Virus record (IMG/VR): IMGVR_UViG_3300021399_000139
Direction: 5' to 3' (one strand)
DNA: 20,000 bases
Origin: an uncultured virus (IMG/VR IMGVR_UViG_3300021399_000139)
Taxonomy: Duplodnaviria; Heunggongvirae; Uroviricota; Caudoviricetes
Shown here: piece after piece, positions 726-19,690 of the stretch
Numbering within the stretch: the first letter of the stretch is position 1
Layout of the letters: each line of letters opens with the position of its first letter
Notes under the pieces: model-generated
Databases searched by the model: none
What the model was told of the DNA's origin: nothing
What the model saw: the letters and a program-made list of their open reading frames with translations, nothing else
Position numbers and translations under genes: made by a program

Positions 726-1316
726 TTAATAACTCAAATATTTTCCTTCTAGTAGATTCTTCAAAAAATAGTCAGTGTCTAGAAATGACAATATCGCTTC
801 AAGTTTTACAACATCAACTAGAAGTAGCTCTCCATTTTCAAGCATTGGCTTGACGTTTTTGTTGAATGTCTTCTAAGTGTCAAGCAGTCTATAGTATGTC
901 TTTTTTGCTATCTACTTGAACATCTCAGACTTGAAGAAGTTGGCACGTTCTTCTACAGTCATTTCAGCTTTTGGAGAATTAGCTATCTCAACTTGCCAAA
1001 GTGCCTTGTTGTTGTCAAATCTAAGACTATATGCCATGTCATCATCAACATTTACAAGCTTGAACTAGGCTATGTAGAAATACGAAGCTTCAACATCTTG
1101 GGTCAAACTCTTCTCTAGCTCATCTTTTTCTATCAAATGCTGGCCAACATCTTCAATTTGATCAGCTATAAACTTCCAATTCTGTCCAGAAGCAGAGCCA
1201 AAACATCTGGCAGACCTTAAGTCAAGTCCAGCAAAAGGTTCATTTGACATAGTCTAGTCATCTATGTCATCAGCTTCAAAAAGCACTTTGTCAAATCTAC
1301 TTACATCTATTGCCAT
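726..1316 (-). CDS. hypothetical protein, 196 aa, with four in-frame TAG codons (amber-recoded, probably Gln)
   Basis: ATG at 1316 to TAA at 726-728 in one frame, interrupted only by TAG at 1254-1256, 1065-1067, 912-914 and 873-875; fills the intergenic gap; the track ORF 1065..1250 is an internal fragment. Confidence 0.75.
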
Positions 1317-2202: not shown

Positions 2203-2880
2203 TTAGACAAACTCCCACTTCTTATGGAGAATTCGGTCAACAGCGACAGTCTTCTTTGTACGAGTGCCATAGTCCTTCTCAAGAAGGATGTTCTTGCTAG
2301 TCACATGGGCAATTGTGTCATAGATTGGCTCCTTCTTCCAATTGTACCCAATGCGAAGCTTAGTTCCAACAACAAGCTTAGACTCAATCTCTTTGATGTT
2401 CTGAAAATACTCTTGCTCTTTGCGTTCACGTTCCATCTTCTCAAGCTCATAGCGAGCTTTATTGTATGCCCTGTATGCAGCTTTGTAGGCGCTTTCATCA
2501 AGAGCATCAAACCTCTTCTGGAGAGTCTTCAAACTAGAAGCAAGAGCTCCAGCAACAAGGTAGTAGTCAATAGCTGACTGGTCATTGCAGTCAAATGACC
2601 CAAACGTGCAGGTGTTCAGCTCAACTCTGCGCTTCTCGTCTTTGCTTTCCCAAGGAATGCGGAAGGAGATATCAATAGTACGGTTATGGCAGCTATGACA
2701 AGGGACAACAACTTCAGCAGACTCAAGACCATGCATCTTAAGAGAAGAAATATTGTCAATCTTCATCTCAGACATCACGCCAGAGATTATTGCTTGCATT
2801 TTGGCTTGAAGAGCATCTCGCTCAGCAAGATATGGCACCTTGAGCGATTCAACTTCTGCAAGAAGGGTGGCGTGGTCCAT
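2203..2880 (-). CDS. hypothetical protein (start corrected to MDHATLL)
   Basis: RBS AAGGAG before ATG 2880; the longer track start runs through the promoter. Confidence 0.8.
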   Translation of the reverse strand: MDHATLLAEVESLKVPYLAERDALQAKMQAIISGVMSEMKIDNISSLKMHGLESAEVVVPCHSCHNRTIDISFRIPWESKDEKRRVELNTCTFGSFDCNDQSAIDYYLVAGALASSLKTLQKRFDALDESAYKAAYRAYNKARYELEKMERERKEQEYFQNIKEIESKLVVGTKLRIGYNWKKEPIYDTIAHVTSKNILLEKDYGTRTKKTVAVDRILHKKWEFV

Positions 2881-2963
2881 CTGTTTTCTCCTTTGTTTGG
2901 TGGTTGTTGACAGTTGAATTATATCAAAAAGCCTAGAGTCTGTTAACTCTAGAACTGCAGATG

Positions 2964-3272
2964 TCAACTTGTTTCAAAGTTCCAGTCGAATCCAAGTGCA
3001 GACACATCAATTGAAATCTCAATCTTCACTGGAATGCTTGTCAATGAGTTCTTGTCTTCAAGATACTCCCAATAGCAAGTCTTCCAAAACTCAAGCGCAG
3101 TCTCTTTAGACTCAAACAAGTTGTCATATACACCCTCCTCCAACGGCGTGTCATGCACTACGCCATATCTTGTCCCTTCTGCAGTCTTATAGAAACCAAG
3201 AAAGTACTTGCGTCCTTTACGGTCGATAAGGCCAACTGTCCATCCTTTGAATGTCTGTTTCATAGTGCTCAC
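2964..3272 (-). CDS. hypothetical protein (alternative ATG at 3263)
   Basis: Co-oriented ORF overlapping upstream stop; GAGGAG upstream. Confidence 0.7.
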   Translation of the reverse strand: MSTMKQTFKGWTVGLIDRKGRKYFLGFYKTAEGTRYGVVHDTPLEEGVYDNLFESKETALEFWKTCYWEYLEDKNSLTSIPVKIEISIDVSALGFDWNFETS

Positions 3273-3502
3273 TTGCTCCTCTTCAGGCGGTCATGTTCAA
3301 TTGCGTACTGCATGTACTTGTTGATTGCGTTGTCAAGCTCTTCCCACCACTTGTCTTCAAGCTCAGGCTCTGTCTCATTCCTGATCTTAATCACTGCTTT
3401 GTACACCGCAGCATTCAGCTCAGCATCAGGAGCAAGCAGCTCCTCAAGCTCCTCTTCACGAGTCTTGGCTTCTAATGCAATTACTGAGTCAATCTTGACC
3501 AT
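3269..3502 (-). CDS. small acidic hypothetical protein
   Basis: RBS AAGGAG; Glu-rich helical sequence. Confidence 0.75.
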   Translation of the reverse strand: MVKIDSVIALEAKTREEELEELLAPDAELNAAVYKAVIKIRNETEPELEDKWWEELDNAINKYMQYAIEHDRLKRSK

Positions 3503-3520
3503 AGGAGTTGTTCTCCTTTC

Positions 3521-4850: not shown

Positions 4851-5171
4851 CTAGACTTTGTTAACCAATGGAGTTAGACCATGCAAGTCTGCTGTTATGT
4901 GCAGCTCATCAAGCGAGTCAGATATGGCCAATGCTATTTGCTTGTCATAAGGATCTGAACAAATTTCAAGTACTACCCCATACAATACATATAGTTCTTT
5001 GTCAAGACTGTTGTATATCTTGCTTATTGTTAGACTGTCAAAGCAGAGAAAGTTTAAAGACCACCCTCTTAAGAAGTCTAATATTGTGAACTTCTCAATC
5101 TCATATCTATAGTATTCTTTAAAATTGCTGTTGTTGAAATCTATGCTAGTGAATATCATATTGTACTGCAC
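4851..5171 (-). CDS. hypothetical protein (GTG start; ends at TAG, or 3 codons later at TGA if read through)
   Basis: Fills gap; AT-rich; weak RBS. Confidence 0.55.
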   Translation of the reverse strand: MQYNMIFTSIDFNNSNFKEYYRYEIEKFTILDFLRGWSLNFLCFDSLTISKIYNSLDKELYVLYGVVLEICSDPYDKQIALAISDSLDELHITADLHGLTPLVNKV

Positions 5172-5198
5172 CCAAAAAGCTTAGGCTATACCATTAAA

Positions 5199-5221
5199 GC
5201 TGAGAAGGAATCCTTCTCAGC
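5199..5221 (-). terminator. intrinsic terminator
   Basis: GCTGAGAAGGA/TCCTTCTCAGC hairpin followed by TTT on minus strand. Confidence 0.65.
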
Positions 5222-5266
5222 CACTTGACTACTCCAAAGTCAAGATTTTTGTCAACCAACTAGGAG

Positions 5267-5836
5267 TTATGCAAATTCATTTACTTTCTTCTCAGCATTG
5301 TCAAACTCATACTTCATCTCTTCTTCATCTACGCAGACAGGGATGCTAGTTCCACCTACCTCATCATAGTGAAGGTCAATCTCTTCGCCAAGGTTGTCAT
5401 ATACAGCTTCTGCTCCATATATTCCAAAACGAGCATCAACGCTCATCCACATACGCTGCTTCTCATCCCACTTCTCAACGATGATGCCATACACATGGCC
5501 ATTGTACCAGTCTTCATAGAGGCGGTGCTCAATCTCAGCAAACTCCTTGAGCTTCGGAAGAGTCCAGTAGGAAGGGTCTTCAGCAACCATCTCCTTGCAG
5601 CGCTCAGCTGTCGTGAAGAACCAGATAGACTCATGTCCATACGGCTGGAACTTCCACTTGTAGAGAGCATTCTCAGGGATGTGGTCTTCGTCTTCAGCCT
5701 TCTCAAAGACAAGGTCTTCATTGTCGCAAGGCTCACGAGGACTGGTCTCACGCACAATCCTAATACGGTAGTCAGCAAGACGGACTTTGTCAGAGTTTTT
5801 GAGGTAGATGCGGATGTCATTGGACTGCTTGCTCAT
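5267..5836 (-). CDS. hypothetical phage protein
   Basis: Promoter 5874-5904, RBS AAGGAG; WYNGHVYG...FGIYG motif. Confidence 0.85.
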   Translation of the reverse strand: MSKQSNDIRIYLKNSDKVRLADYRIRIVRETSPREPCDNEDLVFEKAEDEDHIPENALYKWKFQPYGHESIWFFTTAERCKEMVAEDPSYWTLPKLKEFAEIEHRLYEDWYNGHVYGIIVEKWDEKQRMWMSVDARFGIYGAEAVYDNLGEEIDLHYDEVGGTSIPVCVDEEEMKYEFDNAEKKVNEFA

Positions 5837-5916
5837 TTGCTTTCTCCTTTAGTTTAGGTTGATTGACATGACTAATTATATCAAAAGTCTAGAGATTTGT
5901 TAACTCATTGCTTTCT

Positions 5917-6306
5917 TCAAATAAATGCCATCATACCATTTGTCGCCTTTACAAGTGGAGTCGAAGAATGAATTTTGCCATAGTCTTCTTCTGACATCCC
6001 AGGACCACCGATAAATGTATAAATAGCTTTCGCAAGTTGATCCACTTTCGCTCCATCAACCCCACGAACTCGTATCTCAAACACTGCCGATTCAGACTCG
6101 TCTTCATCACACTGTATACCAATAGTCTCCTCGTATATTGGCTCCTTGCTGATAATCGAGCGGGCCTCGTCATCACCACCCAGTCCTGTGCATTTGACAG
6201 CTTTAGCGATCGCCTCTTCGTCCGACTGTGCCTCGATCTGCGACGCAAATGCTGTTGGACGGACACGGACAGTGTATAGATTCAAGTTTTCAACTTTGTT
6301 TGCCAT
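5917..6306 (-). CDS. hypothetical protein (start corrected to MANKVEN)
   Basis: RBS AAGGAG before ATG 6306; promoter 6340-6370. Confidence 0.8.
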   Translation of the reverse strand: MANKVENLNLYTVRVRPTAFASQIEAQSDEEAIAKAVKCTGLGGDDEARSIISKEPIYEETIGIQCDEDESESAVFEIRVRGVDGAKVDQLAKAIYTFIGGPGMSEEDYGKIHSSTPLVKATNGMMAFI

Positions 6307-6397
6307 GTTGCTTTCTCCTTTAGGTTTGGCTGACAATTAAATTATATCAAAAGACTAGCAGTACGTTAACTAAAAGTTAAGCATTCAAATGCTTAGG

Positions 6398-6643
6398 CTA
6401 TGCATTTGTCTCTATGTCCATGTCAATCTGCTTTATGTCATGGACATATATGTGTGGAGTCAACATGTGGCGAGATGCAAACACCCGCTGAGCTTCCATC
6501 AAGTGGCTAGCTAGGACAAAGGCTTCTTGCATCTCATCTAAGTTGAAGGTCACTTTGCCTTCTTTAGGGTCGATGAACGAACCAAGCACATACCTAACTC
6601 TAAATACATGCTTTGGCGGCTTCTTCTTGAATATGTTGAACAT
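6398..6643 (-). CDS. hypothetical protein
   Basis: Co-oriented ORF; ends at TAG (TAA 7 codons later). Confidence 0.7.
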   Translation of the reverse strand: MFNIFKKKPPKHVFRVRYVLGSFIDPKEGKVTFNLDEMQEAFVLASHLMEAQRVFASRHMLTPHIYVHDIKQIDMDIETNA

Positions 6644-6655
6644 AGTCTTCTCTAT

Positions 6656-6961
6656 TTAATACTTCTTCAGTTTGCCATCACGAGTGAACTTAGTCTGGAC
6701 AAGCTTGCCATTGACATACCGCCAAAACGTAGCTTTAGGGTCAACCATTCCATCAAAACGGGCAATGCCTATTGCTGCGCGCGCTTCACGCTTAGCTTGA
6801 GCCACAGAAGTAAATGGTGTCCCAATGAGGTAGTCATTATAAGGACCATCGGTGCACAAGAGGTCTTTTCCATCCATTAGATAAGACTCGCCATTCTTGT
6901 CATGGTTCCACCAAGCTACAGAACCATCATCATCTGAGTGGACTCTAATGTAGATTTCCAT
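6656..6961 (-). CDS. hypothetical protein
   Basis: Promoter 6994-7024, RBS AAGGA. Confidence 0.8.
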   Translation of the reverse strand: MEIYIRVHSDDDGSVAWWNHDKNGESYLMDGKDLLCTDGPYNDYLIGTPFTSVAQAKREARAAIGIARFDGMVDPKATFWRYVNGKLVQTKFTRDGKLKKY

Positions 6962-7045
6962 TTGCGCTGTCCTTTAGGTTTAGTTGACAGCATAATTATA
7001 TCAAATGTCTAGAGATTTGTTAACTTACTGTGGCACCATAAAAAC

Positions 7046-7636
7046 CTACAAGAACTTATATGCCTTCTTGCCAAGACGCTTCAGCTCAGCCTCAATCTTC
7101 ATGGCAAGATCGCACTCCTTTACCATGTAAGGGTAGATGTCAATGCCGACGTTGACATTGAGGACATCACAGCTGTTGTCGAGCTTGAAAGCCCACTTGT
7201 CATGCACATGGCCACAGATATTGACATACACATAATGCTTTGTTGCGACGAGCGGAAATAACATTGCTTCTTGGCTGAATGACGGATAGTGCTGGACAAT
7301 GCAGTCAATCTTGCCAACTTTTCGGAGCAAGACCTTGCCAGCAGTGCTGCAGCGGTTGTTCTCGTCGTGGTTGCCTTCAAGGAGAACTACGTTGGCTGTA
7401 ATCTGGCTGAGCGCGTCTTTTGCAGATATCTGGTCTTCACGCACGCCGGTGCCGCGGTCAAGGCCACGCTGGATGAAGTCACCAACATGGATGATAGTGT
7501 CAGACTTCAGCTTAGCGCGCTGGTTTGCCTGCTTGATGTAGACCTCAGACATGCGCTTAGCTGACTTGAAAGGCCGCTTGCAGACCTTGAGGATCAGCTC
7601 GTCATTGAGGTGCCAGTCTGATGTGAAGAAGTCCAT
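7046..7636 (-). CDS. calcineurin-like metallophosphoesterase
   Basis: All five motifs present: SDWH, VGD, GNHDE, HYP, GHVH. Confidence 0.9.
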   Translation of the reverse strand: MDFFTSDWHLNDELILKVCKRPFKSAKRMSEVYIKQANQRAKLKSDTIIHVGDFIQRGLDRGTGVREDQISAKDALSQITANVVLLEGNHDENNRCSTAGKVLLRKVGKIDCIVQHYPSFSQEAMLFPLVATKHYVYVNICGHVHDKWAFKLDNSCDVLNVNVGIDIYPYMVKECDLAMKIEAELKRLGKKAYKFL

Positions 7637-7647
7637 TGCTCAGTCCT

Positions 7648-7833
7648 TTAAACCAAGTCTACAATGACAGACTTGCCACCTGCAGTTATCTTAAGACGGG
7701 CTTTAGTCTCACCACTGTCAATGCGCGTGCTAATCTTGCTAGCAGTGAAGTCTAAACTGCAGCTGCTAGGGTCAACCTGGTACTTGACTCCATTTATCTC
7801 AAAATAAAGTTCCATTGACATGTCCATTGTCAT
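7648..7833 (-). CDS. hypothetical protein
   Basis: Promoter 7860-7890, RBS GAGGAG. Confidence 0.7.
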   Translation of the reverse strand: MTMDMSMELYFEINGVKYQVDPSSCSLDFTASKISTRIDSGETKARLKITAGGKSVIVDLV

Positions 7834-7889
7834 TCTCCTCTAAGTTTTGTTGACAGTCTAATTATATCAAAAGCCTAGGAATTTGTTAA

Positions 7890-8111
7890 CTATGGCATGA
7901 CTTCACCAAGCTCAGGCTTGCGCTGCCACGTATTGCCATATTCAGTTGTGTAGCCTAGCTCAACGCCATCACTGTGGTTGATGTGGAGCTCTCTAAGCTT
8001 CTTCTCACACATCCTGATGCAAGTGTCCATAGACTGGTACTTCTTGCTCTGGAATGTCTGGCGCTTTGGAAGGTGAATCACAAAGTAGAAGTCATGCATG
8101 TCATTGTCCAT
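7890..8111 (-). CDS. hypothetical protein, paralog of 14147..14389
   Basis: Shared pattern YxxxxxCxxxC...N..D.V.L..T...G..W. Confidence 0.7.
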   Translation of the reverse strand: MDNDMHDFYFVIHLPKRQTFQSKKYQSMDTCIRMCEKKLRELHINHSDGVELGYTTEYGNTWQRKPELGEVMP

Positions 8112-8176
8112 AGCTCTTCATTCACTTAATGGTTGACAAAGAGATTATATCAAAGACATCAAGGCTTTGTTAACTT

Positions 8177-8377
8177 TCAATCTTTAGTTGCAACTATAAA
8201 AAGAACTATCAGTGACAAGATGACTAAAGCTGCAGGAATCCACAGAGGACTCAGAACCCACCACCATGACCATTCTGCTACAGGTCCAATCTGTGCAAGC
8301 TTCAGTGCGATGAACACTATTGCAAGTAGACCACAAAAGCTGACTCCACCTGACCTAAACGTCTTTTTCTCACTCAT
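8177..8377 (-). CDS. small membrane protein with two TM helices
   Basis: LLAIVFIALKL...WSWWWVLSPLW; promoter 8430-8460. Confidence 0.8.
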   Translation of the reverse strand: MSEKKTFRSGGVSFCGLLAIVFIALKLAQIGPVAEWSWWWVLSPLWIPAALVILSLIVLFIVATKD

Positions 8378-8461
8378 TTTTTGTATTTCCTTTTTATTTC
8401 ACGAATAAATTTGATTAATTGACACAACTAATTATATCAAATGTCTAGAATTTTGTTAACT

Positions 8462-8635
8462 TCAACAATTAAACATCTCCTCTTGCTCTCTAGTCATCTT
8501 CTTAATGTAGCAAGAGTCTTTACAACCTTCAGCTCGAAGCTTAGACCTAATCTCCATAGCATAAGACTTAGCTTCATCTTTAGTGTCACATACGGAATCG
8601 AGTCCATCATCTACAAACACTGCATACTTAGACAT
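8462..8635 (-). CDS. hypothetical protein (start corrected to MSKYAVF)
   Basis: GAGG RBS; ATG directly after upstream stop. Confidence 0.65.
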   Translation of the reverse strand: MSKYAVFVDDGLDSVCDTKDEAKSYAMEIRSKLRAEGCKDSCYIKKMTREQEEMFNC

Positions 8636-8636
8636 T

Positions 8637-8840
8637 TCATCGCCTCTTTCCATGCAGTCTATTGTGCTTAGCTTCCTTCTTGAGGAGTGCCTTGAACTTC
8701 TTGTCATTGGCACAGATTTCAGGGTCTTGCCGCCTAGCTATAGCATCACGTCGGCTCTTAGACCTTTCAAGGTTGTTCCTATTCATTCGATTGCTCTTCT
8801 TAGGAGCTTTGCCAAATCCTCGATACCTCATCTCTTTCAT
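8637..8840 (-). CDS. small highly basic protein
   Basis: Promoter 8872-8902, RBS AAGGAG; Arg/Lys-rich. Confidence 0.75.
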   Translation of the reverse strand: MKEMRYRGFGKAPKKSNRMNRNNLERSKSRRDAIARRQDPEICANDKKFKALLKKEAKHNRLHGKRR

Positions 8841-8897
8841 TGCCTTCTCCTTTAAATTTGGCTGACAGTAGAATTATATCAAAAGCCTAGAAGTCTG

Positions 8898-9257
8898 TTA
8901 ACTTTCGCTGTTAGGCGAATGTATGTCCCACCAAATGCCAAGCATATTCTTGTCTATGCCCATTGCCATTTCATAGTTCTGCAGCGCTTGACTGCCATCA
9001 ATGAAGTTGCACCTGACTTTGCCTATGACTACCCAGATCTTTCCGCATTTGACAATCTCATATGACTCAACTTTGTTGAAAGGTGGATGCCCTCTGCACT
9101 CAGCAACTTCCATCTCTTCAAGCTCTTTCATGAGGTGCTTTGCAAGGTTCACTGTCACAGCCCATGAAAATGCCCCTTCTCTTAAGTGTGTCTTGCAGTA
9201 GTCTGCAAACTCCTTTGGAAACATGGGCGCCTCTTCACTCTTCATGTTGATGGCCAT
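8898..9257 (-). CDS. hypothetical protein
   Basis: Overlaps deaminase end; stop TAA lies inside the next GTTAAC. Confidence 0.7.
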   Translation of the reverse strand: MAINMKSEEAPMFPKEFADYCKTHLREGAFSWAVTVNLAKHLMKELEEMEVAECRGHPPFNKVESYEIVKCGKIWVVIGKVRCNFIDGSQALQNYEMAMGIDKNMLGIWWDIHSPNSES

Positions 9258-9618
9258 TTCCTGGCATCAAAGAGACTATCTTTATGCCATACTTAGCAGC
9301 AGCGCGTTGACAGACAGGGCACGGATCAATTGGCCGAAGATTGCCAGACCTTCCAACTCGGCATATGACAATAGTCTTTATAAGTGATCCATATCGAGCA
9401 ATTAGCCGCCGCTCGGAATGTTCGGCTGTGCCTGCTCTGCCAATCTTCTCTTTCTCTAGCACATTCCAGTTCTTAGAATGAGAGTTTGTCACATGGCCAA
9501 GAATGTCACCTTTAGAGTCAAAGGCGATTGCCGAAATCTTATATGTGCAAGGGCTATGTGCAGCCTTCTCTTTAAGAAGATTTTCAATAGCTATAGAGAC
9601 ATCTGCTTTTCGTTTCAT
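9235..9618 (-). CDS. Zn-dependent cytidine/dCMP deaminase-like protein, apparently leaderless
   Basis: HSE (HxE) and PCPVC (PCxxC) motifs; ATG 8 nt after TATAAT, no RBS. Confidence 0.8.
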   Translation of the reverse strand: MKRKADVSIAIENLLKEKAAHSPCTYKISAIAFDSKGDILGHVTNSHSKNWNVLEKEKIGRAGTAEHSERRLIARYGSLIKTIVICRVGRSGNLRPIDPCPVCQRAAAKYGIKIVSLMPGNGHQHEE

Positions 9619-9668
9619 ACAGCATAATTATATCAAAAAACTTAGGCTATGTTAACTATACAAAACCA

Positions 9669-9690
9669 GCCTTAGACACATGTCTAAGGC
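9669..9690 (-). terminator. hairpin / probable terminator
   Basis: GCCTTAGACA-ca-TGTCTAAGGC. Confidence 0.6.
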
Positions 9691-9709
9691 CGGCCATCAA
9701 TTCTAATGC

Positions 9710-10168
9710 TTAGGCAAAAGCACTAGTAGCTACCCTATATGCTTCCATTGCGGCTTTATATGCTTCCATTGCTGCACCATAGGCCTTCTTCCATGCGGGC
9801 TCGACACATTCGGCGCTGTCATCGTCAATGCCATCACTGCCATTGCCGAAGATGTTGCCATTGAGATTTTCAGCAACAAAGTCACGACCAAGCTTAGTAA
9901 GCACATAGCCATTAGTGCGGTCATACGAAATAAGATTCGACCACAGAAGCATCTGGAACACACATGCATAGTAGCCATGCCGAGAAGGAAGGCCAAGCTT
10001 CTTGAGTATGGCAGCGCGAGAAGGCATATTGCCATTAGAAAGAAGCTTAAGCACAGCGCCATAGCCATCATATGTGTTAGGCCTTGTAAACGTAGGGCAC
10101 TTTGGGCTGAAATAGCAGTGCGCTGCTGCAGTCATGAAGTTTCCACGAGCAATGTCAATTGTATTCAT
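9710..10168 (-). CDS. winged-helix protein with acidic linker and Ala-rich C-terminal helix (start corrected to MNTIDIA)
   Basis: LLWSNLISYD..NGYVLTKLGRDFV wing motif; RBS AAGGAG. Confidence 0.7.
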   Translation of the reverse strand: MNTIDIARGNFMTAAAHCYFSPKCPTFTRPNTYDGYGAVLKLLSNGNMPSRAAILKKLGLPSRHGYYACVFQMLLWSNLISYDRTNGYVLTKLGRDFVAENLNGNIFGNGSDGIDDDSAECVEPAWKKAYGAAMEAYKAAMEAYRVATSAFA

Positions 10169-10248
10169 TTGTATTCTCCTTTGTTTGTTGTTTGTTGACA
10201 GCAGAATTATATCAAAAAACTTAGGCTTTGTTAACTTCATTGTTCATT

Positions 10249-10293
10249 AAAAAGCCTTAAAGCAAAAGCCTTAAAGCAAAAGCTTTAAGGCTT
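10249..10293 (-). terminator. terminator hairpin with a tandemly duplicated arm
   Basis: AAAAGCCTTAAAGC twice, then AAAAGCTTTAAGGCTT. Confidence 0.65.
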
Positions 10294-10311
10294 AATCATA
10301 ACTGCACTTGC

Positions 10312-10764
10312 TTAAATGCTAGCCATTGCTATCTTGTATGCTTCCATTGCCGAAGAATAAGCGGCCATTGCAGCATCATATGCGCTTAGCCAAGATGAAG
10401 AACCATTAGATTCAGCATTGCTAGCATCATTGTCTTCATCATCTTCGTCGTAGTCTTCAGAACCATTAGTGTTGTTGTCTCCACCATCAATGTCGTCCAA
10501 ATCAATGTTCTTTACAATATTCTCTACAATTGACACCTGTTCAGGCCACCGCACAACGAAAAATGGTCCAATCTTATCAACCAATGAATTACGGTAATTA
10601 TAATAAAGTGCATTATATATAGACTTGTACTCTGGCAAAAACTTATAGAAGAAGTAGTCACGTTCATCTAGCCAATCAATGACTTCATTTGCATTTGCTT
10701 CATGGTCAATGTAGTAAAGTGCCACAAGTACGGCCTTAGAAAGCGGTAATTCCTTAAGTTCCAT
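10312..10764 (-). CDS. putative winged-helix (HARE-HTH-like) protein with acidic tract and Ala-rich C-terminal helix
   Basis: LSKAVLVAL...ANEVIDWL...SIYNALY...LVDKIGPFF; D/E/N-rich linker. Confidence 0.6.
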   Translation of the reverse strand: MELKELPLSKAVLVALYYIDHEANANEVIDWLDERDYFFYKFLPEYKSIYNALYYNYRNSLVDKIGPFFVVRWPEQVSIVENIVKNIDLDDIDGGDNNTNGSEDYDEDDEDNDASNAESNGSSSWLSAYDAAMAAYSSAMEAYKIAMASI

Positions 10765-10863
10765 TTTGTCTTTTTCCTTTCGTTTGGTTGTTTGGTTTGG
10801 TTGACAGTGTAATTATATCAAATCCTAGATGTTTTGTTAACTTATCTTGAATTGTGTGCAAAA

Positions 10864-10885
10864 AGCTGGGACAAATGTCCCAGCT
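10864..10885 (-). terminator. intrinsic terminator
   Basis: AGCTGGGACA-aa-TGTCCCAGCT with T-tract on minus strand. Confidence 0.75.
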
Positions 10886-10934
10886 ATGTGCTTGACGACT
10901 CCTATTGTCAAGACTTTGTCAACCAAACAAGCGC

Positions 10935-11204
10935 TTAGCGCTTAGGAGTCCAAATCTTAGAGATGTCGCGGCCATACTGGGCATTGAGACGCATATGCAA
11001 GCCACGAAGAGCAGGATAATTGCCAATGTCTTCAGGACGAAGATATGTGTTGCGAAACACCTTTTCACCAGTACTCTCATCGATGCCAGCATAGATTCCA
11101 CGAGGGAACATGATGACTGTCTCTCCACGAGAGAACCGCTTCTTGTTGAAGGCGCGGCCAGCCCACTTGGCACGGATTAATGATGCAGACTTCTCATTGA
11201 ACAT
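10935..11204 (-). CDS. hypothetical basic protein
   Basis: Promoter 11240-11270, RBS AAGGA. Confidence 0.75.
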   Translation of the reverse strand: MFNEKSASLIRAKWAGRAFNKKRFSRGETVIMFPRGIYAGIDESTGEKVFRNTYLRPEDIGNYPALRGLHMRLNAQYGRDISKIWTPKR

Positions 11205-11298
11205 ATGTTTTTCCTTTCAGTTGTTTTTACTGACAGCGAAATTATATCAAAAGATCCGCATTTTGTTAACTCATTTTTTTCATTATGTGCAAAAGAAA

Positions 11299-11322
11299 AG
11301 CCAGCTCTCTTTCAAGCTGGCT
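11299..11322 (-). terminator. intrinsic terminator
   Basis: AGCCAGC...GCTGGCT with T-rich tail on minus strand. Confidence 0.6.
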
Positions 11323-11348
11323 CCATAGTCGAACTATTGAGCTTCGAC

Positions 11349-11507
11349 TTAGGCCTTCTTAGTCTTCTTCGGCGTCTTCTTAGTCTTCACTGCGGCCTTC
11401 TTGACTGTAGTCTTCTTTGCACTCTTAGCGCACTTGCAGGCGCATGCCTTCTTCTGTGTACGACGGGCCTTCATGAAACGGCCTGTCACTGGATCTCTCA
11501 TTGTCAT
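11349..11507 (-). CDS. histone H1-like Lys/Ala-rich peptide, 52 aa (not in ORF track)
   Basis: MTMRDPVTGRFMKARRTQKKACACKCAKSAKKTTVKKAAVKTKKTPKKTKKA; strong AAG codon bias. Confidence 0.75.
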   Translation of the reverse strand: MTMRDPVTGRFMKARRTQKKACACKCAKSAKKTTVKKAAVKTKKTPKKTKKA

Positions 11508-11549
11508 TTTTTTCTCTTTCTTTGTTGTGTCTTGCTTGTTGCAAGCTGT

Positions 11550-11957
11550 TTAAGTCTGCTCTACCAAGATTTCTCCTGGCCAATCTTCCATTGCTCTCTC
11601 AAAAGAGTCTACAATGCTAGGCGAAAGTCCATGGACATTTTGGAAATTGCCACAGCACCTATAGACATAGAACTCTGCTCCAAACTTCTCAGCGAGTCTC
11701 TTGTATGCTTCTATGAACCGCATCTTAGTGAACGTATTGCATATGACAACATCAAATTTGTTGCTTAAGGCAGTCTTGCACATGTCTAAGCACCAAGCAA
11801 CTGCTTTTGGCATGTTGTCCTTGCTCCACTCGTACTTTCCATCATGGATGTGGTACATGTCATTCTCTAGATGGAATGTTCCAGGAAACATTCGGTATGC
11901 AGCCTGGGTCTTGCCACTGCCCGGTTTTCCCCGGAAAAGTATGAGACGGTTTGCCAT
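11550..11957 (-). CDS. P-loop kinase (AAA_33 / polynucleotide-kinase-like)
   Basis: LILFRGKPGSGKT Walker A, VVICNTF, QNVHGL; start MANRL inferred. Confidence 0.8.
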   Translation of the reverse strand: MANRLILFRGKPGSGKTQAAYRMFPGTFHLENDMYHIHDGKYEWSKDNMPKAVAWCLDMCKTALSNKFDVVICNTFTKMRFIEAYKRLAEKFGAEFYVYRCCGNFQNVHGLSPSIVDSFERAMEDWPGEILVEQT

Positions 11958-11962
11958 AGCTC

Positions 11963-12157
11963 TTAGATGTTGAATGTCTTGCCCATCCAACGATAGACAT
12001 TTTGGTTTCTAGTCTTTCCCTTGTCGTCAATGTATGTCTTTGACGAAGCGCCAAAGGCTATTTCAACATTAGGTGTCCCTTTTGGAAGAACACACTTCTT
12101 TCCATCATATACAGGGTACTTCAAGGTGTATGGACCAGCAAACTTGTAGTTAGACAT
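11963..12157 (-). CDS. hypothetical protein
   Basis: Promoter 12190-12219; RBS AAAGGA 7 nt before ATG 12157. Confidence 0.7.
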   Translation of the reverse strand: MSNYKFAGPYTLKYPVYDGKKCVLPKGTPNVEIAFGASSKTYIDDKGKTRNQNVYRWMGKTFNI

Positions 12158-12222
12158 ATTCAATTCCTTTGATTGTTGTGAACATTGATATTATATCAAA
12201 TTGCTGGCTCTTTGTTAACTAA

Positions 12223-12262
12223 ATGGCCCAAGAGGAAGAAAGGAGTAGTCCTCTTGGGCCAT
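12223..12262 (-). repeat. hairpin element, copy 1 (34 bp identical to 17707-17740, inverted)
   Basis: GCCCAAGAGGACTACTCCTTTCTTCCTCTTGGGC in transcribed orientation. Confidence 0.85.
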
Positions 12263-12390
12263 AACTGTCAACCACCATTTCAAATGGCCATGTGGATTTC
12301 TAGGCTTTCATTTTTCCCGGCTGTTTATCTTATAGGGTTCTATAAGATAAACTAGAGCACGAGTTTTCAGTCTAGGCAAAATATCTAGAA

Positions 12391-12558
12391 TCACTTCTTA
12401 AGCACTTCCCTAAGACGCGCAGGAATCACGGCTTCTCGATTGCATTGGTCACAGCACCTGTCATTCTCATCTTTCGAGACAGGATATGGGTTGTTTCCGT
12501 ATCCATTGAACGTCTTGCCACAGATGCAGCACGTATATGTATTGTCGCTCTTAGCCAT
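12391..12558 (-). CDS. small zinc-finger protein, 55 aa (not in ORF track)
   Basis: MAKSDNTYTCCICGKTFNGYGNNPYPVSKDENDRCCDQCNREAVIPARLREVLKK; two CxxC motifs. Confidence 0.8.
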   Translation of the reverse strand: MAKSDNTYTCCICGKTFNGYGNNPYPVSKDENDRCCDQCNREAVIPARLREVLKK

Positions 12559-14535: not shown

Positions 14536-15009
14536 TTAGACTATATGAAGTCTGCAAGCTATTGTCTTGTAGTCATCTTCAGTGATGTAGAGCTCCTGAT
14601 GCGAGAAGTTAATTCCACCGCACGGAATGTTGAGATGGAGAATGCGGTAGGCCACATCGCTTGGCTTCTTAGTGTCAGAGCAGAGATCAGCCTTGAAGTG
14701 ATTGCCTTTGCCATCTAGACGGCGCTCAGTGTAGCCAAACTCCTCTGTAGCTTCATAGTATCCAGGATTCGTGAAGTCTTCACTCCAACCACGGTGCACA
14801 GGATCTTCAGCTACGCATTCTCTGACTTCAGTGAAGTTCTTGCAGCCGCGCCACGCCAAAATAGGTGTCTTCTTGACGCCAGCTTGCGCTAGCTCCCATT
14901 CTGTTGCATTGCTGCGCTTAAGGACTGCTCCAACAGTTATAGGTGAAATGTATGCTATTGCATCACAGTTGATGTCAGATCCATCAGACAGCTTCACGAA
15001 CTTGCTCAT
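14536..15009 (-). CDS. hypothetical protein
   Basis: Promoter 15045-15075, RBS AAGGAG. Confidence 0.8.
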   Translation of the reverse strand: MSKFVKLSDGSDINCDAIAYISPITVGAVLKRSNATEWELAQAGVKKTPILAWRGCKNFTEVRECVAEDPVHRGWSEDFTNPGYYEATEEFGYTERRLDGKGNHFKADLCSDTKKPSDVAYRILHLNIPCGGINFSHQELYITEDDYKTIACRLHIV

Positions 15010-15154
15010 TTTTTGTTTTCTCCTTTAGGTTTGGTTGACAGTCTAATTATATCAAAAACGTTAGGCTATGTTAACTCTATGCGCATAATTCGGCGAGTTA
15101 ACAGATTTCTAGACTTTTGATATACAGCTGTGGCAAAAATGGCAAAAAAGAAGA

Positions 15155-17668: not shown

Positions 17669-17705
17669 AAGAAGAAAGACAATTATCTTGAAGATTTTCT
17701 CATTA

Positions 17706-17746
17706 AGCCCAAGAGGACTACTCCTTTCTTCCTCTTGGGCTTTTTC
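17706..17746 (+). terminator. terminator hairpin, copy 2 of the 34-bp element
   Basis: AGCCCAAGAGGA-ctactcctttct-TCCTCTTGGGCT then T-tract. Confidence 0.8.
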
Positions 17747-17818
17747 TGTGTCTATATATCAAAAGTCTAGAAGTCTGTTAACTTCAAGCGCAGCATATTT
17801 CGATGTAAATAGAGAGAA

Positions 17819-19570: not shown

Positions 19571-19690
19571 ATGCATGTCTTGAAGTTTGTCTTGGCACTT
19601 GTTGGATTGTTTGTATTGCTTGAGCTGTCAACCACGTTGGCATTCTTTCTCATCATAGTACTGCTTTGGTTGGCAACAGGAAAGTCTTGA
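19571..19690 (+). CDS. hydrophobic membrane micropeptide, 39 aa
   Basis: RBS AAGGAG; MHVLKFVLALVGLFVLLELSTTLAFFLIIVLLWLATGKS. Confidence 0.65.
   Translation: MHVLKFVLALVGLFVLLELSTTLAFFLIIVLLWLATGKS

Follow-up and report, generated by a model that had tools for sequence, protein, structure and literature searches.

In large lytic phages that have equal host-type promoters by the dozen, the turning down of early genes is known mostly from protein systems, an example being RegB of phage T4, which cleaves at GGAG. The shut-off of early T4 mRNAs by this protein nuclease has been described (PMC9697503). The 3'-UTR motif UCCCCUG of the icaR mRNA of Staphylococcus aureus pairs with the Shine-Dalgarno (SD) sequence of the same mRNA (PMC3868564), the aapA/IsoA and hok/Sok type I toxin mRNAs combine metastable hairpins with a long-distance 5'-3' interaction that occludes the SD (PMC6733600), and a 14-bp pairing of the 5'-UTR with the 3'-UTR in the Bacillus subtilis hbs mRNA modulates cleavage by RNase Y (PMC5737220). 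In virulent Pseudomonas phages, putative UTR-derived and antisense RNAs have been reported, their function being left open (PMC10914365). The PeSL cassettes of T4-type phages are shuffled, with joints at their heads (PMC2839356, PMC4122927), and the word 'antisense' does not occur in PMC2839356. A term search of a phage sRNA review found no passage on the targeting of early leaders (PMC12197685), and a literature search by titles and abstract openings, of limited coverage and with few subscription papers, returned no phage tail aimed at the phage's own early leaders.

The window analysed here, a 20,000-nt stretch of an uncultured member of the Caudoviricetes (IMG/VR record IMGVR_UViG_3300021399_000139), is the early region of a large phage and is made up of short genes, each preceded by a near-identical head. 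A Pfam family is absent at the cut-off for 21 of the 23 window genes tested, and a few have PHROG matches. A script search found 31 heads carrying TGATATAAT in the window, nearly all with TTAACA-17-TATAAT; in most of them GUCAAY comes 6 nt further on and is followed by an A/C-rich stretch up to AAAGGAG, which bears out the sequence-only reading that most cassette mRNAs begin with a common leader. The 31 heads surrounding the element described below have -35 and -10 boxes 17 nt apart, followed by an SD and a start codon. Each head is an imperfect inverted repeat, and the complement of the leader start therefore reads GTTGACA, a -35 box. The DNA of the window is present in gut metagenome runs, no RNA run being among the 13 listed, and three contigs from a metagenome scan (L001-L003) are 100% identical to it across both copies of the element, which rules out an assembly artefact for either copy. 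In contigs of related phages the joints fall at heads and the cassette order is different; heads are exchanged among relatives.

Gene-less or variant heads were also seen in the window at 15096 (+), 15656 (+), 17783 (-), 14483 (+), 16607 (+), 16694 (-) and 206 (-). Several have an altered -10 box, and some are placed tail to tail with an ordinary head and fire into the terminator of the neighbouring cassette; short antisense RNAs may arise from them. AGCCTAA, a spacer fragment of one head subtype, stands alone at 1428, 2195, 5187, 6399, 12942, 12959 and 15716 (-), at gene ends and behind terminators, and may mark recombination scars or a protein site; it is also present behind a hairpin near 2880 in a distant relative (G001, see below). 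For the gene at 3269-3502, the complement of the RBS stands between the RBS and the ATG, directly ahead of the latter (3503-3520, minus strand), forming a local SD-masking hairpin, and two neighbouring, unrelated-looking proteins (9708-9805 and 10328-10383) have in common a repeated AAMEAYK end after an acidic linker.

The element itself is real, repeated, retained and larger than first described. Copy 1 (5224-5266, minus strand) follows a 189-aa gene (5267..5836) which has no Pfam or PHROG family and 166 metagenomic homologues, and whose promoter head and leader (5837..5905, minus strand; TTAACA-17-TATAAT, leader from about 5869) are the predicted cis partner of this copy. In minus-strand order, the stop codon (5269-5267) is directly followed by an anti-SD, CUCCU (5262..5266), whose partner is the AGGAG of a leader or the module's own GGAG, then by the anti-leader GUUGGUUGACA (5250..5260), the complement of the first 10-11 nt of the early mRNAs, which includes TTGACA. 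Next come a CUUGAC/GUCAAG hairpin, here called hairpin B (5224..5244), which carries GGAG at 5235-5232 and starts at +23 after the stop, and a GC-rich terminator-like hairpin (5196..5222). The terminator proposed earlier for this place is thus present as a GC-rich hairpin, but its tail has only three U residues and the terminator scan of the window did not call it on the minus strand.

Copy 2 (10891-10949, minus strand) lies behind an 89-aa gene (10935..11204) of no family, unrelated to the copy 1 gene. Both copies sit between a stop codon and a terminator-like hairpin and comprise an anti-SD, an anti-leader and a GGAG hairpin. In copy 2 the anti-SD CUCCU (10944..10948) lies inside codons T86-P87, and a small 6-bp hairpin with the stop codon as its loop (10929..10943) brings it beside the anti-leader, so that the pairing geometry is as in copy 1. 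The anti-leader (10917..10928) is a 12-nt exact complement of the consensus leader start; hairpin B with GGAG (10891..10912) again starts at +23 after the stop, although the spacers flanking the anti-leader differ by one base each between the copies; and the terminator hairpin (10860..10885), with a 5-U tail, is absent from the minus-strand terminator list of the window scan. The head of cassette 2 (11205..11271, minus strand) has a self-folding GUCAGU-variant leader that evades both copies. A head search found no internal head-type promoter in either host gene. In 21 homologues of the copy 2 protein with 70-100% identity, T86, P87 and K88 are at least 90% conserved and R89 is invariant, in contrast to most of the 20 preceding residues, which are variable; the conserved T-P-K-R fits a constraint on the RNA, but could be due to one on the protein. 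A composite pattern of the element, derived from these two copies, occurs twice in the window and in none of 200 shuffles. A candidate third copy at about 19660-19690 binds leaders more strongly than its own shuffles, in a comparison that scored the shuffles on 16 of the 31 leaders and the observed sequence on all 31, and was rejected as it lies inside the codons of a short ORF and has no hairpin B. Behind the stop codon of the ORF at 912-1037 there is another CTTGAC...GTCAAG pair, its halves 24 nt apart (849-884, minus strand); an anti-leader is absent there.

The post-stop sequence of copy 1 had been described as complementary to the leader and RBS of the cassette mRNAs, and this is upheld by the sequence directly and by its duplex energies. 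When the 40 nt after the stop were compared for 47 hand-listed 3' regions, copies 1 and 2 took ranks 1 and 2, with median duplex energies of -16.7 and -15.8 kcal/mol against the 31 leaders and the next region at -11.3. With 15 of 30 leaders, the anti-leader of copy 1 forms a run of 10-11 contiguous pairs (16.1 bits on the leader matrix); with 14 of 30, that of copy 2 forms one of 12-14 (19.8 bits). With self-structure included, the median net binding to the 30 leaders with an RBS (15692 being left out) is -13.0 kcal/mol for copy 1 and -10.9 for copy 2, compared with means of -4.7 and -4.3 for dinucleotide shuffles, none of which (0 of 60 for each copy) reached the observed value; the enrichment over shuffled controls proposed as a check of the sequence-only reading is therefore present in both copies. 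Net binding has a median of -14.6 and -12.5 kcal/mol (copies 1 and 2) for 20 consensus leaders, a class defined by the same motif that the element matches. The corresponding values are -6.3 and -5.0 for the 10 other heads, -4.2 and -2.9 for 13 RBS regions that have no promoter, and -5.9 and -5.5 for 28 leaders from a relative. The seed is thus complementary to several other RBS regions beyond chance, as in trans-acting sRNAs, and the earlier suggestion that many early mRNAs could be paired in trans fits both copies energetically, the support being one of energies.

Two terminator-like hairpins with an identical 34-nt core, at 12223-12262 (-) and 17705-17745 (+), also carry an anti-SD, open in a 12-nt loop that presumably resembles the 3' tail of 16S rRNA. 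Ahead of the first lies an anti-leader (12266-12275), and the second is faced by the antisense head at 17783; their GACTACTCC recurs in copy 1 on the strand opposite to the mRNA. Net leader binding of these two hairpins is not clearly above that of shuffles.

The module is predicted to adopt two folds. In the free state the anti-SD is paired with the module's own GGAG, with a pairing probability of 0.95 in copy 1 and 0.96 in copy 2, and hairpin B lies 2.4 and 2.9 kcal/mol, respectively, above this fold, forming in both copies once a leader engages the anti-SD. The CUUGAC/GUCAAG hairpin with GGAG in its loop, as first read, is accordingly there in the sequence of copy 1 but is not its free-state fold (probability 0.05). 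The 3' half of the module costs 2-3 kcal/mol for every target class alike, so in this energy model it raises the threshold for binding without sharpening the choice of target; masking as a device for selectivity is unsupported by this uniform penalty. Between copy 1 and copy 2 the masking helix has no two-sided compensatory change. A stop-codon read-through pseudoknot was also rejected, as the first helix is 3' of the stop in copy 1 and 5' of it in copy 2.

Retention of the element was followed in contigs of related phages. Copy 1 could be aligned in X4 at 5056-5337 (35 differences, 1 gap) and in X6 at 5056-5345 (27 differences, 1 gap), and copy 2 in X4 at 10860-11278 (29 differences, 3 gaps), X3 at 10771-11237 (18, 1) and X6 at 10811-11300 (33, 3); the comparison covered 4 of the 13 listed metagenome runs, and 40 of its 930 differences were itemised. 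Judged from these alignments, the element is kept in place, at the level of the region, at about 7-12% divergence. Beyond these contigs, IMG/VR returned no match to the element pattern or to the head patterns, none among 11 candidates with the copy 1 protein alone and none among 34 with the copy 2 alignment; GTDB genomes returned none to the head pattern and none among 82 by alignment; and in GenBank phages the window had no match by protein or by DNA. At 15 loci of a second gene family (36-41% identity), comparable head arrays were absent in a motif scan and, at 6 of the 15, likewise by ORF listing.

One distant relative, G001, was found. Its homologue of the copy 1 protein has 57% identity and its gene has no such tail, and an IMG/VR search with the G001 head pattern returned G001 itself only. 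The heads of G001 (L005-L008) have TGGCTG at the -35 position, versus TTAACA in the window, and the same TGATA extended -10, a difference that points to a host sigma factor of other specificity. Immediately behind one stop codon (about 21643-21711, or L006 2643-2711, minus strand) lie twin hairpins whose anti-SD loops are 13 nt long, and a single hairpin with an anti-SD loop of 13-14 nt follows another stop (near 2900, or L005 about 2880-2930, minus strand). These hairpins match the two RBS classes of G001 itself and are the top three of 150 rows; the ranking also contains spurious ORFs, leaves self-structure out of account and is tied at ranks 3-4. A further G001 cassette is a clear candidate for 5'-3' pairing with itself: in L004 (701-1693, near 14614), the leader (667-688) and post-stop sequence (1696-1717) of a lysine-rich 330-aa gene pair at -37.7 kcal/mol, compared with a median of -7.7 for other leaders, and none of 500 shuffles reaches this value (best -35.5). 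As far as these predicted pairings go, leader-complementary tails are found in this phage family both in a form directed at the leaders as a class and in a form directed at the own leader.

On the model that follows from the predicted pairing, the element is most likely a putative RNA brake on early translation. It would be a portable anti-leader module that two early mRNAs carry as their transcribed tail and that damps the translation of early genes by base pairing; we infer its transcription as a 3'-UTR from its position between stop codon and hairpin, behind strong heads. While unbound, the module would keep its anti-SD folded onto its own GGAG. On meeting a consensus leader it is predicted to pair 10-14 nt at the 5' end and 4-5 nt at the SD, the displaced strand refolding into hairpin B. 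Tuned to the consensus and not to a single partner, it could address many early mRNAs, copy 1 also its own leader, and it could act either while still attached as the tail of a whole mRNA or as a stable piece of the 3' end. Paired mRNAs would be translated less or decay faster, and the outcome would be a negative feedback in which early protein synthesis falls as early transcripts accumulate, cassettes with variant leaders being spared. More speculatively, the ribosome, as it terminates, may be enabled by the fixed spacing of +23 to switch the fold, so that the seed is exposed. It is quite improbable, on present grounds, that the tails form a complete two-state switch timing the early phase, in which the ribosome ending the carrier gene would melt the masked fold, the GGAG hairpin at +23 would trap the displaced strand, and the freed seed would silence consensus-leader mRNAs, leaders of variant sequence, among them the one in front of one carrier gene, being immune.

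That the element works by RNA pairing in some mode, either on the leaders as a class or on its own mRNA, is probable; that it damps early translation across the class is a tentative proposal, held at somewhat less than an even chance. Action across the class is favoured by the presence of two copies behind unrelated genes, by their leading ranks among the 47 regions and the failure of all 60 shuffles to match either of them, and by the better binding of consensus leaders than of other heads, promoter-less RBS regions or the leaders of a relative. It is further favoured by the same two predicted folds in both copies, by retention in X3, X4 and X6, and by the G001 tails that fit their own RBS classes. 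Its main weakness is stoichiometry, as two copies stand against 30 equally strong heads in the window, and such a mode works only if the tail is stable, is recycled or exists in more copies elsewhere. It is also weakened by the uniform cost of the 3' half, by the lack of a tail on the 57% G001 homologue, by the uncompensated masking helix, and by the intramolecular partner of copy 1, which should win.

In a doubtful, though not negligible, alternative, each copy clamps only a leader of the same molecule. As soon as its mRNA had been completed, copy 1 would close its own leader and SD by folding back and thereby limit the protein dose; copy 2 would clamp the next cassette in read-through, or would be the relic of a former consensus head that recombination has exchanged. 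In the predicted fold of the full cassette 1 mRNA, 16 leader positions are paired to the tail, compared with none in 18 of 20 controls in which 22 nt were shuffled. The longest helix, of 11 bp, is reached by two leaders, among them the own leader of copy 1, whose pairing, at -19.0, is the strongest own pairing among the 47 regions, although this leader ranks only 8 of 30 by energy. The own leader of copy 2 ranks 29 of 30, so pairing with the own mRNA cannot be a function common to both, and the 5'-3' pairing proposed in the sequence-only reading is retained as a prediction for copy 1 and fails for copy 2. In a read-through transcript, copy 2 is predicted to close the leader (10806) and SD of the next head 3' of it (10765..10842, minus strand), but in X3 and X4 a different cassette lies beyond copy 2. 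The self-pairing G001 cassette and the swapping of heads among relatives, seen in the contig joints, speak for clamping in cis; the need for one module to have two different cis partners speaks against it, and since the cis option differs between the copies, pairing with the consensus leader is the only mode that they have in common.

An unlikely alternative places the element at the DNA level, as a shrunken head of the same orientation that kept its -35 box and spacer and lost the -10 box, being either a relic or a site whose three TTGAC half-sites would be recognised by sigma region 4 or by a regulator of the phage, with the complementarity a by-product of the imperfect inverted repeat of the head. 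The sense strand of copy 1 is indeed the best non-head match to the -35/spacer matrix, at 12.8 bits, but a chance match in a coding region reaches 11.4 bits, the 34 head-like sites score 18-36 bits, and copy 2 scores 4.8. Half-head fragments after stops are abundant in the region, and GGTTGACA occurs in a promoter-like context at an unrelated phage locus (L035). Against this, UUGG/CUCCU lies upstream of the -35 in both copies and never in heads, and no -10 box is present on either strand, including at 16-18 nt; the latter led to rejection of the element as a PeSL or other early promoter head and sustains the earlier statement that copy 1 is not a normal cassette head. Retention of the anti-SD by different means in the two copies likewise disfavours a promoter relic. 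The module may have originated from a head, in which case the UUGG extension and two independently placed anti-SDs would be unexplained.

Very unlikely is a feature of the plus strand, such as what is left of an inverted head, or a decoy or weak terminator acting on antisense transcription that enters the gene from its 3' end. Leader and SD can be read on the plus strand, 5224-5244 is listed by the scan as a plus-strand terminator-like hairpin, and antisense heads are aimed into terminators at 15096, 15656 and 17783. However, copy 2 is not called as a terminator, the SD of copy 1 is only 2 nt from the next ATG, and the 8-nt gap from TTGACT to the -10 position is unlike that of a decayed head. 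A head-type plus-strand promoter exists at neither copy, and this agrees with the initial observation for copy 1, ahead of which lie two 9/12 consensus matches (5084-5113 and 5134-5162) in a scan that gave 59 matches in the window versus 38.7 in shuffles. The inverted cassette head remnant, raised at the outset as the reading that would overturn an antisense element, is thus at odds with both the spacing and the promoter search. Scarcely credible, finally, is an attenuator in which the loop GGAG is the real SD of a 12-codon ORF (5224-5186, minus strand) governing read-through across the copy 1 terminator, since GGAG, 7 nt and GUG are found in copy 1 but the corresponding position of copy 2 lacks a start codon, and the anti-leader would be left unexplained.

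Several known classes of RNA were also considered and rejected. A type I toxin-antitoxin mRNA does not fit the 189- and 89-aa proteins of no family, which are not small membrane toxins, and head searches of the window found no antisense head at either cassette that could supply a cis antitoxin RNA. RNA motifs bound by CsrA/RsmA have several ANGGA loops, and the element has one GGA loop per copy, outside an ANGGA context and paired in the free fold. Likeness to integron attC sites or CRISPR repeats was not seen by eye, nor was there an Rfam match: none in the window at the gathering threshold, and two weak ones at E up to 5 over 5000-12500, neither on the element.

If the proposal holds, a 50-nt tail that reads a shared 5' end would turn early genes down without a protein, and conservation of the transcribed part of the head would be explained. 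Such a brake would survive the shuffling of cassettes, its target being on every head. A translation-coupled switch, if real, would be the RNA counterpart of RegA/RegB. Plasmid reporters suffice as a test, so that phage culture is unnecessary, and a self-masked repressor that reads 5' ends would be a usable design for synthetic circuits.

By analogy, the module may work like the 5'-3' pairing of icaR and aapA, the UTR helix of hbs, or a 3'-UTR-derived sRNA, and these are likenesses rather than assignments to a class. As in icaR, the 3'-UTR of copy 1 carries an anti-SD complementary to, and predicted to close, the RBS of the same mRNA; unlike icaR, copy 2 cannot pair with its own leader, and in place of a single gene with a long UTR there is a 45-60-nt module behind two unrelated phage genes that matches the shared 5' end of many mRNAs. 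The aapA and hok mRNAs and the module have in common a distant anti-SD and alternative folds, but the alternative fold here masks the anti-SD and not the SD. The helix between the hbs UTRs is of similar length, and an effect of the module could likewise be on stability; hbs, however, is a chromosomal gene and its helix is not directed at a shared leader. With CisR (PMC13250501) and a lambda sRNA (bioRxiv 10.1101/2024.10.31.621285) the module shares the succession of seed, hairpin and, here putative, terminator at an mRNA 3' end, whereas the targets predicted for it are early leaders of the phage itself, taken as a class, and a separate RNA is putative. The PeSL cassettes resemble the surroundings of the module in their repeated sigma-70-like early heads, SDs, stem-loops, genes of no family and shuffling at heads, and differ from the element in that it has no -10 box. 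T4 RegB and the module address the same problem, the switching off of early mRNAs as a class, by a nuclease in T4 and, as proposed here, by RNA pairing.
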